Positions 2,951 to 63,790 of a stretch of DNA of 64,000 nucleotides are shown here, piece by piece. A model generated the notes under the pieces. That model was not told where the DNA came from and did no database searches. It was given only the letters and a program-made list of their open reading frames with translations. Made by a program: the position numbers and the translations under genes. The first letter of the stretch is position 1. Every line of letters starts with the position of its first letter. Source of the stretch: Escherichia coli (lineage in GTDB: Bacteria > Pseudomonadota > Gammaproteobacteria > Enterobacterales > Enterobacteriaceae); the NCBI RefSeq assembly GCF_030013205.1, contig NZ_CP122648.1; one strand, given 5' to 3'.

Positions 2951-4240
2951 ATGACGCGCCGTGCTATCGGGGTGAGTGAAAGACCGCCACTTTTACAGAC
3001 AATCCCGCTTAGTTTGCAACATTTGTTCGCCATGTTTGGTGCAACCGTCCTGGTGCCCGTCTTATTTCATATTAACCCGGCGACTGTACTGTTATTTAAC
3101 GGTATAGGAACACTGCTGTATCTCTTCATCTGTAAAGGGAAAATTCCGGCTTATCTTGGTTCCAGCTTTGCCTTTATTTCACCGGTATTGTTACTGTTGC
3201 CGTTAGGGTATGAAGTCGCGCTGGGCGGCTTTATTATGTGCGGCGTGCTGTTCTGCCTGGTTTCTTTTATCGTGAAGAAAGCGGGGACCGGCTGGCTGGA
3301 CGTGCTGTTTCCACCTGCGGCAATGGGCGCAATCGTTGCCGTCATCGGTCTGGAGCTGGCGGGCGTAGCTGCCGGTATGGCGGGTTTACTCCCGGCTGAA
3401 GGGCAAACGCCAGACTCCAAAACCATCATCATCTCCATTACCACCCTGGCGGTTACGGTTTTAGGTTCCGTGCTGTTTCGTGGTTTCCTGGCAATTATCC
3501 CGATTTTAATTGGCGTGCTGGTGGGCTACGCGCTCTCTTTCGCAATGGGAATTGTCGATACCACGCCGATTATTAATGCTCACTGGTTTGCGCTGCCAAC
3601 TCTCTATACGCCGCGCTTCGAGTGGTTTGCCATTCTGACTATTCTACCAGCGGCGTTAGTGGTTATTGCCGAACACGTAGGGCACCTGGTGGTAACGGCT
3701 AATATCGTCAAAAAAGATCTGCTGCGCGATCCAGGTCTGCACCGTTCGATGTTTGCTAACGGCTTGTCGACCGTGATCTCCGGCTTCTTTGGCTCCACGC
3801 CAAATACCACCTACGGGGAAAACATTGGCGTGATGGCGATCACCCGTGTTTACAGTACCTGGGTTATCGGCGGGGCGGCGATTTTCGCTATCCTGCTTTC
3901 CTGCGTCGGTAAACTGGCTGCTGCTATCCAGATGATCCCATTGCCGGTGATGGGCGGCGTTTCGCTGCTGCTTTATGGTGTCATCGGTGCTTCCGGTATT
4001 CGTGTTTTGATCGAATCGAAAGTGGATTACAACAAAGCACAGAACCTGATCCTGACTTCCGTGATTTTGATCATCGGTGTCAGTGGCGCGAAGGTAAACA
4101 TCGGCGCGGCGGAGCTGAAAGGTATGGCGCTGGCGACCATCGTCGGTATCGGCTTAAGTTTGATCTTCAAACTGATTAGTGTGCTGCGCCCTGAAGAAGT
4201 GGTGCTGGACGCAGAAGACGCGGATATAACAGACAAATAA
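2951..4240 (+). CDS. uraA: uracil:proton symporter (NCS2 family)
   Basis: 429 aa starting [21 protein letters not shown]; multi-TM; RBS at 2937..2944. Confidence 0.95.
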
Positions 4241-4334
4241 TGTACCGACCGGGCAGTGTTGCTGCCCGGTTCAAACATCATGGGATTCTGTGGTAAACTT
4301 CTCGCGATTTTGTGAAATCCTGGTTGAGGTATCT

Positions 4335-25361: not shown

Positions 25362-26070
25362 TGCACAGAAAACCCCCAGCTAGGCTGGGGGTTCCGGAAA
25401 GCTTTCAGCTTTGAGCCAGTTATTAAAACCCCTTTTGATTTGTTAAAACACCTTGCGGTCTGGCAACTGCAAGTGTCAAACAAGAAATCAAAAGGGGGTC
25501 CCAATGGGGAACGAAAAGAGCTTAGCGCACACCCGATGGAACTGTAAATATCACATAGTTTTTGCGCCAAAATACCGAAGACAGGTGTTCTACAGAGAGA
25601 AGCGTAGAGCAATAGGCAGTATTTTGAGAAAGCTGTGTGAGTGGAAAAGCGTACGGATTCTGGAAGCTGAATGCTGTGCAGATCATATCCATATGCTTGT
25701 GGAGATCCCGCCCAAAATGAGCGTATCCGGGTTTATGGGATATCTGAAAGGGAAAAGCAGTCTGATGCTTTACGAGCAGTTTGGTGATTTGAAATTCAAA
25801 TACAGGAACAGGGAGTTCTGGTGCAGAGGGTACTACGTCGATACAGTGGGTAAGAACACGGCGAAGATACAGGATTACATAAAGCACCAGCTTGAAGAGG
25901 ATAAAATGGGAGAGCAGTTATCGATTCCCTATCCGGGCAGCCCGTTTACGGGCCGTAAGTAACGAAGTTGGATGCAAATGTCAGATCGTGTGCGCCTGTT
26001 AGGGCGCGGCTGGTAAGAGAGCCTTATAGGCGCATTTGAAAAACCTCCGGCTATGCCGGAGGATATTTAT
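25362..26070 (+). mobile_element. IS200-family (IS200/IS605) insertion sequence, ~0.7 kb; boundaries approximate
   Basis: Perfect palindrome cccccagc-tag-gctggggg at 25373..25391, RBS-occluding pairing ccccttttgatt(25429..25440)/aatcaaaagggg(25486..25497), 152-aa Y1/HuH transposase, subterminal hairpin cctccggc-tat-gccggagg at 26044..26062. Confidence 0.8.
25504..25962 (+). CDS. tnpA: IS200 transposase TnpA (HuH Y1 family)
   Basis: 152 aa MGNEKSLAHTRWNCKYHIVFAPKYRR...HIHMLVEIPP (HuH motif)...catalytic Y region; ORF-track upstream extension discarded. Confidence 0.9.
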   Translation: MGNEKSLAHTRWNCKYHIVFAPKYRRQVFYREKRRAIGSILRKLCEWKSVRILEAECCADHIHMLVEIPPKMSVSGFMGYLKGKSSLMLYEQFGDLKFKYRNREFWCRGYYVDTVGKNTAKIQDYIKHQLEEDKMGEQLSIPYPGSPFTGRK

Positions 26071-30802: not shown

Positions 30803-30872
30803 GCCGGGTAGGCCTGATAAGACCGTATCAGGCATCATGGCCGGATGCGGCGTTAACGCCTTATCCGGCCAC
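30803..30872. repeat. REP elements (inverted pair)
   Basis: gccgggtaggcctgataagaccgtatcaggc ... gccggatgcggcgttaacgccttatccggcc. Confidence 0.75.
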
Positions 30873-33033: not shown

Positions 33034-33098
33034 TTCCTGAGACAAAGTACAAACAGCAAGAACCTGCTGAGCAGGTTCTTAATCGGAAAGTTGAAAAG

Positions 33099-47769: not shown

Positions 47770-47804
47770 CGCTTACCCTGAATATTCAGGGTAAGCGGTT
47801 TTCC
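47770..47804 (+). terminator. rho-independent terminator after maeB
   Basis: Hairpin cgcttaccctga-atat-tcagggtaagcg followed by gttttcc. Confidence 0.7.
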
Positions 47805-60612: not shown

Positions 60613-61272
60613 ATGCCAGCTTTAGATTTGATTCGACCGTCGGTCACCGCCATGCGGGTGATTGCCTCTGTTAACGCCGAATTTGCGCGTGAACTGAAAT
60701 TGCCGCCGCATATTCGTAGCCTCGGGCTGATTTCTGCTGATTCCGATGACGTCACCTACATTGCGGCTGACGAAGCGACCAAACAGGCGATGGTCGAAGT
60801 GGTGTATGGTCGCTCGCTGTATGCGGGCGCTGCACACGGACCGTCACCGACTGCCGGTGAAGTGCTGATTATGCTTGGTGGGCCAAACCCGGCGGAAGTG
60901 CGTGCAGGTCTGGATGCGATGGTTGCGCATATTGAAAATGGCGCTGCTTTCCAGTGGGCTAATGACGCAGAAAATACAGCCTTCCTGGCACATGTAGTTT
61001 CGCGTACCGGTTCTTATCTCTCATCAACCGCCGGGATCACGCTTGGCGATCCGATGGCGTATCTGGTGGCACCGCCGCTGGAAGCGACCTATGGCATTGA
61101 TGCAGCCCTGAAATCTGCCGACGTACAGCTGGTGACCTATGTCCCGCCACCGTCTGAAACCAACTACTCGGCAGCATTTTTAACCGGTAGCCAGGCAGCG
61201 TGTAAAGCAGCCTGTAACGCCTTTACCGATGCAGTGCTGGAAATCGCGCGTAATCCAATCCAGCGTGCGTAA
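60613..61272 (+). CDS. eutL: BMC-T (tandem) shell protein EutL
   Basis: 219 aa. Confidence 0.92.
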
Positions 61273-61284
61273 CGGAGGTTGCCG

Positions 61285-61785
61285 ATGATCAATGCACTGG
61301 GATTGCTGGAAGTGGACGGCATGGTCGCCGCGCTAGATGCTGCGGATGCCATGCTCAAAGCAGCTAACGTTCGTCTGCTCAGTCACGAAGTGCTTGACCC
61401 TGGTCGCCTAACGCTGGTGGTGGAAGGCGATCTGGCGGCGTGTCGTGCGGCGCTGGACGCAGGTTGTGCTGCCGCGATGCGTACCGGGCGTGTCATCAGC
61501 CGCAAGGAGATCGGTCGGCCAGACGATGACACCCAGTGGCTGGTTACTGGCTTTAACCGCCAGCCTAAGCAACCCGTAAAGGAACCCGACGCGCCAGTTA
61601 TCGTCGCGGAATCTGCTGACGAGTTGTTGGCGCTGTTAACATCAGTACGTCAGGGAATGACGGCAGGAGAAGTGGCTGCCCACTTTGGCTGGCCGCTGGA
61701 AAAAGCCAGAAATGCGCTCGAACAGCTCTTTTCTGCCGGGACGTTACGTAAACGCAGTAGTCGTTATCGTCTCAAGCCCCATTAA
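61285..61785 (+). CDS. eutK: BMC shell protein EutK with C-terminal helix-turn-helix extension
   Basis: 166 aa MINALGLLEVDGMVAALDAADAMLKAANV... BMC domain then basic HTH-like tail. Confidence 0.9.
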   Translation: MINALGLLEVDGMVAALDAADAMLKAANVRLLSHEVLDPGRLTLVVEGDLAACRAALDAGCAAAMRTGRVISRKEIGRPDDDTQWLVTGFNRQPKQPVKEPDAPVIVAESADELLALLTSVRQGMTAGEVAAHFGWPLEKARNALEQLFSAGTLRKRSSRYRLKPH

Positions 61786-61830
61786 CCTGTCGGAGGTGCC
61801 GGGTGTCCTACAACACCCGGCATTAACATC

Positions 61831-63790
<1,960 letters not shown>

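Follow-up and report, generated by a model that had tools for sequence, protein, structure and literature searches.

The hairpin that separates eutK from eutR in Escherichia coli and its close relatives is, on balance, probably the middle of a split translation initiation region for eutR. The only strong Shine-Dalgarno (SD) sequence of the junction, GGAGG (61792-61796), ends 34 nt ahead of the eutR ATG, a distance that would be too long on a linear RNA, and the stable hairpin would fold out between the SD and the AUG and draw the two together. With the 24-nt hairpin folded, the spacing would fall from 34 nt to 10 nt (8 nt if a flanking U-A pair is counted), and the AUG would then effectively be about 8-10 nt, and the breadth of the helix foot, away from a 30S subunit bound at the SD. 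That ribosomes use this distal SD, and that EutR synthesis needs the folding, we infer from sequence comparison. The window denotes the whole 64,000-nt stretch of E. coli DNA that was analysed, and the parts of the junction lie in it as follows.

61285..61785, plus strand: eutK coding sequence (BMC shell protein with the EutK_C domain), from the open reading frame list and the RefSeq annotation of identical or near-identical E. coli records.
61783-61785, plus strand: eutK stop codon TAA, from the open reading frame list.
61786..61791, plus strand: 6-nt linker cctgtc from the eutK stop to the SD, which differs among genera.
61792..61796, plus strand: distal SD GGAGG, the sole strong anti-SD site upstream of eutR.
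61798-61806, plus strand: 5' arm of the hairpin, gccgggtgt, from sequence, fold and covariation.
61807-61812, plus strand: hexaloop cctaca, free to vary even inside Escherichia (catata, tatgta, cgtaca).
61813-61821, plus strand: 3' arm of the hairpin, acacccggc, from sequence, fold and covariation.
61822..61830, plus strand: A/U-rich single-stranded spacer attaacatc, 9 nt from stem to ATG, without SD-like sequence.
61831..62904, plus strand: eutR coding sequence (AraC-type activator of the eut operon), from the open reading frame list and RefSeq annotation.

The eutK start was placed at the ATG at 61285 because eutK of K-12 comprises 501 nt, while the eutR ATG (61831-61833) is the first possible in-frame start after the preceding stop and its position is common to all aligned genera. 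The segment 61300-62300 is 100% identical to E. coli strain 746, and the eutK/eutR region, annotated as eutK and eutR, was found in 5420 of 5426 complete E. coli genomes. Furthermore, the 45-nt junction is single-copy with at least 99% identity in 5365 of 5390 E. coli records, and the K-12 junction (NC_000913.3, 2,555,183-2,555,227, minus strand) has the same sequence as that in the window. The EutR product is 357 aa long in this strain as against 350 aa in K-12, the latter length being shared by a large E. coli cluster (P0003, 8947 member sequences). The 7-residue C-terminal extension (62881-62904) overlaps the convergent hemF, whose 3' end lies at 62888, by 17 nt; in K-12, eutR and hemF are separated by a 5-nt gap.

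A preliminary description of this junction had reported a perfect 9-bp stem with a 6-nt loop (61798..61821) between the eutK stop and the eutR start, and both the structure and its position are confirmed: the stem starts 12 nt past the eutK stop and ends 9 nt short of the eutR ATG, with a tenth pair (T61797/A61822) possible outside the perfect stem. The distal GGAGG, 1 nt 5' of the stem, was absent from that description and is the key feature here. RNA spanning 61783-61850 has a fold energy of -26.3 kcal/mol (z = -4.33), equalled by none of 200 shuffles, and the hairpin with two flanking pairs (61796-61823) accounts for approximately -20 kcal/mol. A perfect 9-bp hairpin is, by itself, unexceptional in this window, which holds 17 matches at about 10 loci (2.0 ± 1.9 in dinucleotide shuffles); since such hairpins are not rare here, the case for the eutR hairpin rests on cross-genome conservation. 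Further perfect hairpins or palindromes of 9-15 bp occur at 47770-47797, 4248-4270, 25371-25393 and 33058-33080. A search of the window at up to three mismatches found no second copy of the element, and a weak match to the junction covariance model at 4238-4285 (E = 0.27) is at chance level. Membership of an Rfam family was rejected, as a scan at a permissive threshold returned only sub-threshold chance matches, the best overlapping ones reaching 15-16 bits (E 3.7-7) against gathering thresholds of 37-39.

For the comparison across genomes, 19 EutR proteins were aligned and 77 loci were taken, one genome per species, with 11 further lineages added via exact-protein look-ups. The same layout, namely stop codon, about 6 nt, GGAG(G), 0-1 nt, hairpin, 8-10 nt and start codon, recurs in Escherichia, Salmonella, Citrobacter, the Klebsiella oxytoca group and a K. 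pneumoniae-like lineage, as well as in Phytobacter, Pseudocitrobacter, a Pluralibacter MAG, ESL0689 and other lineages. The conservation check proposed at the outset for eutK-eutR junctions of Enterobacteriaceae was thus passed, with compensatory and G·U changes over 33 junctions. In these 33 distinct junctions, all lacking a proximal SD, the hairpin is kept at this position, while at least 15 versions of the stem sequence exist among the lineages. The linker between stop codon and SD likewise varies across genera (ccagtc, cctttc, cccgcc, cctgcc, tgaacc), with the adjoining GGAG constant.

Pairing was counted over 30 unique sequences, lined up at the helix foot in a table that is not fitted to structure. 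In this table, levels 1-5 (GCCGG/CCGGC) are nearly invariant, and levels 6-12 are paired yet variable, with up to four pair types each (UA, CG, AU and GU at level 7). Levels 1-9 total 227 Watson-Crick pairs, 35 G·U, 6 A·C and 2 other combinations. Compensatory changes reach even the lower stem, from G-C to A-U at level 5 in lineage L088 and at level 1 in L089, and from C-G to U-A at level 2 in Phytobacter. In a covariance-model alignment, which unlike the table is fitted to the structure, 92.8% of the cells are paired versus 84.1% in shuffles and 33 cells carry double changes versus 13.2, neither value being reached in any of 500 shuffles, and a control with partners slid by 1-3 columns gives at most 51% paired. 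A G·U pair on this strand would read A·C on the other strand; therefore, the excess of G·U over A·C assigns the selected structure to RNA of the sense strand and not to a DNA operator. The substitution pattern hence indicates that the hairpin is an evolutionarily maintained RNA structure on the eutR-sense strand. The relatedness among the sampled taxa is fairly close, and a part of the flank conservation may just be inherited. Two early products of the alignment work were set aside: a 5-bp helix GUCGG/CCGGC from plain MAFFT and RNAalifold was spurious, with the C. freundii group out of register, and the alignment from a first covariance-model search (E <= 1), into which weak minus-strand or unrelated matches had been drawn, was discarded.

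The same counts bear on the view that the palindrome works as DNA, be it as the operator of a dimeric regulator, as part of the promoter P2 or as an intrinsic terminator or attenuator. A perfect palindrome close to the reported position of P2, a weak constitutive promoter 'preceding eutR', would suit such a role, but the arms differ between genera and yet stay complementary, with G·U combinations far outnumbering A·C. As a palindromic DNA operator the element was rejected, its half-sites not being conserved and its upper-stem sequences varying while remaining complementary. The suggestion that the hairpin marks an internal eutR promoter finds no support either, since the variation follows sense-strand RNA structure and a consensus scan for sigma-70-like promoters (-35/-10 hexamers with 16-18 nt spacing) returned none in 61000-62000. 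A weak non-consensus promoter may lie inside eutK; the working Salmonella P2 fusion spans -454 to +104, so P2 may sit anywhere inside that gene. The preliminary description was right that the hairpin lacks a T-run and is no classic terminator: a terminator scan of 61000-62000 was empty, and no U-run follows the hairpin on either strand (3' flank AUUAACAUC). Its further proposal, that the hairpin could limit transcriptional readthrough into the regulator gene, is not supported, given the missing U-run and the reported co-induction of eutR mRNA with eutS and eutB (12.7-30-fold in E. coli Nissle; PMC7617246). This co-induction with the operon also counts against the terminator and, more broadly, against any DNA-level reading (PMC7617246), which we regard as highly improbable.

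Further evidence for a split initiation region comes from where the SD sequences lie. Duplexes with the 3' end of 16S rRNA were scanned within 100 nt upstream of the start codon, and in E. coli the distal site (at -41/-40) reaches -10.8 kcal/mol versus -1.7 kcal/mol for the best proximal one, its extended complementarity GGAGGUG covering 61792-61798. The distal GGAG(G) is the only good anti-SD site in all 33 core hairpin junctions (-5.6 to -10.8 kcal/mol), where the best proximal value is -3.4 kcal/mol or weaker. Its position is -39 to -46, or -92 to -94 for Intestinirhabdus, and its GGAG is invariant in all 30 unique sequences of the foot-anchored table. An SD beyond the functional linear distance is thus combined with the lack of one at the normal distance.

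The distribution among lineages falls into four arrangements. The hairpin with a distal SD only characterises the 33 unique core junctions, E. coli included, with a junction of 45-50 nt (97 nt in Intestinirhabdus) and a spacer of 8-10 nt. The hairpin is accompanied by both SDs (distal GGAG plus a proximal SD) in L082, L087 and Yokenella, the last with a degenerate hairpin. It is accompanied by a proximal SD only in L086, in which the distal GGAG is lost and GGUGGAG is gained in a 13-nt spacer. Finally, Buttiauxella, L090 and Hafnia have no hairpin, and their junctions of 18-26 nt carry AGGAG beside the ATG (-11 to -15 kcal/mol). No lineage is therefore without an SD, and wherever the distal one is the sole SD, it stands at the foot of the stem. 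Compensatory conservation in the relatives that have the hairpin is accordingly matched by a contiguous site in Buttiauxella, Hafnia and L090. Entomohabitans teleogrylli (L031:2441-2500) has a different, larger GC-rich hairpin (gcgcggcc...ggccgcgc) in a 60-nt junction, with GGAGAG in its loop and a weak proximal SD following; this may be a version of the element that arose independently or has diverged far.

The geometry of the junction is constrained in the same sense. In the 30-sequence table the SD-to-stem gap is 0-1 nt and the stem-to-AUG distance 9-10 nt for hairpins of 22-28 nt; with the 8-nt spacer of L089, the range over the 33 distal-SD-only junctions becomes 8-10 nt. In Intestinirhabdus alba, the hairpin of about 77 nt (L028:2415-2491) is still set 1 nt behind GGAGG and 10 nt ahead of the AUG, its loop having received a second palindrome, GUCAGGCAA...UUGCCUGAU, which makes the junction 97 nt instead of 45-50 nt. 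The flanks stay constant despite the variable hairpin length; therefore, insertions and deletions are tolerated within the hairpin, not in its flanks. The junction minus its hairpin (45-50 less 24-28 nt) approximates the Buttiauxella junction of 18-22 nt, and the palindrome thus looks as though it had been inserted between SD and AUG. Both of these elements lie outside the stem, at an effective spacing of 8-11 nt. The 8-10 nt, plus the helix foot, fall at the long end of the workable range. In most non-Escherichia genera, a GATC (Dam methylation site) abuts the eutR ATG (aGATCATG, -4 to -1), for instance in L005-L029 and L078, and Escherichia has CATC in its place.

An effect of the hairpin on eutR translation had been envisaged in the preliminary description as a limiting one. 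Since the hairpin stands between the only SD and the AUG, an enabling effect is more likely than a limiting one, and the latter is retained here as a rival in which the hairpin acts as a negative insulator that holds the SD off the AUG, blocks reinitiation after eutK and limits the positive-feedback loop. Such an arrangement would fit a low-level activator in a positive-feedback operon (PMC5821096), the lack of any SD within 20 nt of the eutR AUG and the high stability of the hairpin (-15 to -25 kcal/mol). However, a non-functional SD would not stay invariant amid varying neighbours, nor would it need to lie 0-1 nt from the stem, and with the AUG and the spacer outside the structure, nothing masks the start site. 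The sole predicted masking helix, which pairs CUGUCGG (61787-61793) with CCG·ACAG (61842-61849) and would join the 5' edge of the SD to eutR codons 4-7, partly masking the SD, is not conserved. It is predicted in E. coli, Salmonella and some Citrobacter. As a conserved element it was rejected, self-pairing (mean -5.2 kcal/mol) being matched by cross-species pairing (-5.3 kcal/mol), and it is also broken in the C. freundii group and Klebsiella. Insulation of this kind is accordingly judged unlikely. Two further points weigh against bridging. In some species the SD is predicted to be poorly accessible, its mean unpaired probability being 0.10-0.11 in Citrobacter and Salmonella when 110 nt of upstream context are included; and EutR, as a low-abundance regulator, might be made by SD-independent translation or by ribosomes that reinitiate after eutK.

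Bridging cannot be the sole reason for the hairpin, because L086 carries the proximal SD only and L082, L087 and Yokenella carry both. Its persistence in L086 makes probable a second, older role at the junction, such as mRNA stabilisation or an effect on eutK termination. Taken alone, this becomes a further rival, namely a stop-proximal hairpin resembling REP elements that stalls ribosomes terminating on eutK and so reduces EutK output, blocks 3'-to-5' exonucleases and/or defines the processed end of the eutR mRNA. By hand count, the stem begins 8-13 nt past the eutK stop in each of the hairpin lineages, L086 included. According to the summary of Liang, Rudd & Deutscher (2015) in PMC12306157, a REP that follows a stop codon by less than 16 nt is reported to stall ribosomes, so that the upstream gene is translated less, and REPs stabilise transcripts. 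The eutR hairpin is indeed extragenic and within 16 nt of a stop codon, its lower stem GCCGG/CCGGC resembles REP (GCCGGATG...CATCCGGC in ESL0689), and the eutR transcript is a reported RNase E substrate, which would suit a role in mRNA fate. Nevertheless, a stop-proximal role leaves unexplained why the GGAG at the stem foot is invariant, why the stem-to-AUG distance holds at 8-10 nt and why distal and proximal SDs are distributed in a complementary way. Moreover, a terminating ribosome probably reaches the stop codon, 11-12 nt off, without melting the stem, as judged from the size of the mRNA channel. We hold this explanation to be possible, though only tentatively; it is compatible with the split initiation region and may describe an additional or ancestral role.

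Membership of the REP family itself was rejected. By copy number, the element has a median of one place per E. coli genome (E <= 10, 11-nt words), and being single-copy it is not a family member; against the REP consensus of about 35 nt (GCCGGATGCGGCG...CGCCTTATCCGGCCTAC), the 5-bp foot GCCGG/CCGGC is all that matches. For this comparison, the canonical REP element at 30838-30871 of the window, TGGCCGGATGCGGCGTTAACGCCTTATCCGGCCA, was used. The annotation of NC_000913.3 has nothing at the junction.

Binding of a regulator to the RNA provides another explanation. The candidates are CsrA, for which the site would be the GGA within the distal SD, and EutK through its nucleic-acid-binding C-terminal domain. 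When CsrA was overproduced, expression of a Salmonella P2-eutR'-'lacZ translational fusion fell unexpectedly, and the distal SD contains the GGA closest to the eutR start codon. Typical CsrA targets, however, have at least two GGA motifs, as a rule one in a hairpin loop and another across the SD, whereas the junction has one, in the distal SD, and no GGA is common to the variable loops. CsrA is reported to act through eutS, and the site bound by MavR lies in the 3' part of the eutR coding sequence, away from the junction. The helix-turn-helix C-terminal domain of EutK has no assigned function (PMC5821096) and EutK_C is present at every hairpin locus checked, but it also occurs in the hairpin-less, Buttiauxella-like L090, and the co-occurrence is thus not exclusive. 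A dedicated protein-binding site is, in our estimate, very improbable.

A variant of the split initiation region, which we consider improbable, would make EutR synthesis hang on the folding state of the junction, as set by events at the eutK stop or by a bound factor. Terminating ribosomes would cover the SD on the induced polycistronic mRNA from P1, while transcripts from P2 would give free access to it; CsrA and the C-terminal domain of EutK would again be the candidate bound factors. If this were true, the hairpin would exert post-transcriptional control within the positive-feedback loop of EutR, and translation or assembly of the shell genes would be coupled to the output of the regulator.

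EutR controls the use of ethanolamine and, in EHEC and Salmonella, also virulence-linked genes, and its level is set by a positive-feedback loop together with post-transcriptional inputs (MavR, CsrA). If the ribosome binding site is bridged by the hairpin, the latter would be a previously overlooked determinant of EutR dosage; neither a split eutR ribosome binding site nor a junction hairpin is mentioned in the searched literature, which describes P1 and P2, MavR and CsrA. The split site would then be among very few chromosomal examples of a kind known mainly from genes 25 and 38 of phage T4. The translation of eutR would be altered in reporter constructs or deletions with an end point within the 45-nt junction, and calculators that use the linear SD-AUG spacing would under-predict it. 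Gene callers have been misled at this junction: in the K. pneumoniae-like EutR cluster P0013 (357 aa, 2937 member sequences), the start was called at a TTG that lies in the loop of the hairpin, 21 nt ahead of the conserved ATG (L079:1501-1524), probably a mis-call, since the distal GGAGG happens to stand at a normal distance from the TTG. The series of lineages with distal SD only, both SDs, proximal SD only and no hairpin would, furthermore, illustrate how a palindrome inserted between SD and AUG is tolerated and then maintained.

Among known systems, intrinsic terminators and attenuators resemble the eutR hairpin in being GC-rich stem-loops at the end of a cistron, but no U-run follows the eutR hairpin and transcription proceeds into eutR. 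REP elements share with it a GC-rich, extragenic nature, a place close behind a stop codon (12 nt here), the GCCGG...CCGGC foot and a potential effect on upstream-gene translation and mRNA stability; unlike them, it is single-copy, 24 nt instead of about 35 nt long, without the remainder of the REP consensus, and fixed at the same orthologous position across genera. In E. coli thrS and rpmE, as is proposed for eutR, a stable stem-loop inside the ribosome binding region separates two elements that initiation requires (PMC3936740, PMC7297116), and the ribosome is reported to accommodate the hairpin of the split thrS site without unfolding it (PMC3936740). The hairpins of thrS and rpmE, however, part a single-stranded or AU-rich enhancer from a normally spaced SD-AUG pair and are operators for an autoregulatory protein, whereas that of eutR parts the SD from the AUG and has no known binding protein.

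The closest counterparts are T4 genes 38 and 25, in which a hairpin cuts the SD-AUG spacing from 22 to 5 nt and from 27 to 11 nt, respectively, the latter being functional at 11 nt (PMC3014915). These cases were confirmed by mutagenesis, stem-destabilising mutations lowering initiation (Nivinskas et al. 1999; Malys & Nivinskas 2009; PMC3014915), and the structure is kept in close relatives and replaced by a contiguous site in distant ones (PMC3014915). Unlike these mutationally tested phage genes, eutR is a chromosomal regulatory gene of Enterobacteriaceae whose arrangement is known here from comparing sequences, whose hairpin is longer and more stable, and some of whose lineages carry both SDs or, with the hairpin kept, the proximal one only. 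In the features that matter for bridging, the two systems nevertheless agree: the linear distance from SD to AUG is long (22 and 27 nt in T4, 34 nt at eutR) and the hairpin reduces the effective spacing (5 and 11 nt in T4, a predicted 8-10 nt at eutR). As at the gene 26-25 junction of T4, the hairpin is intercistronic, and, as in both phage genes, close relatives keep the arrangement while distant relatives have a contiguous ribosome binding site.
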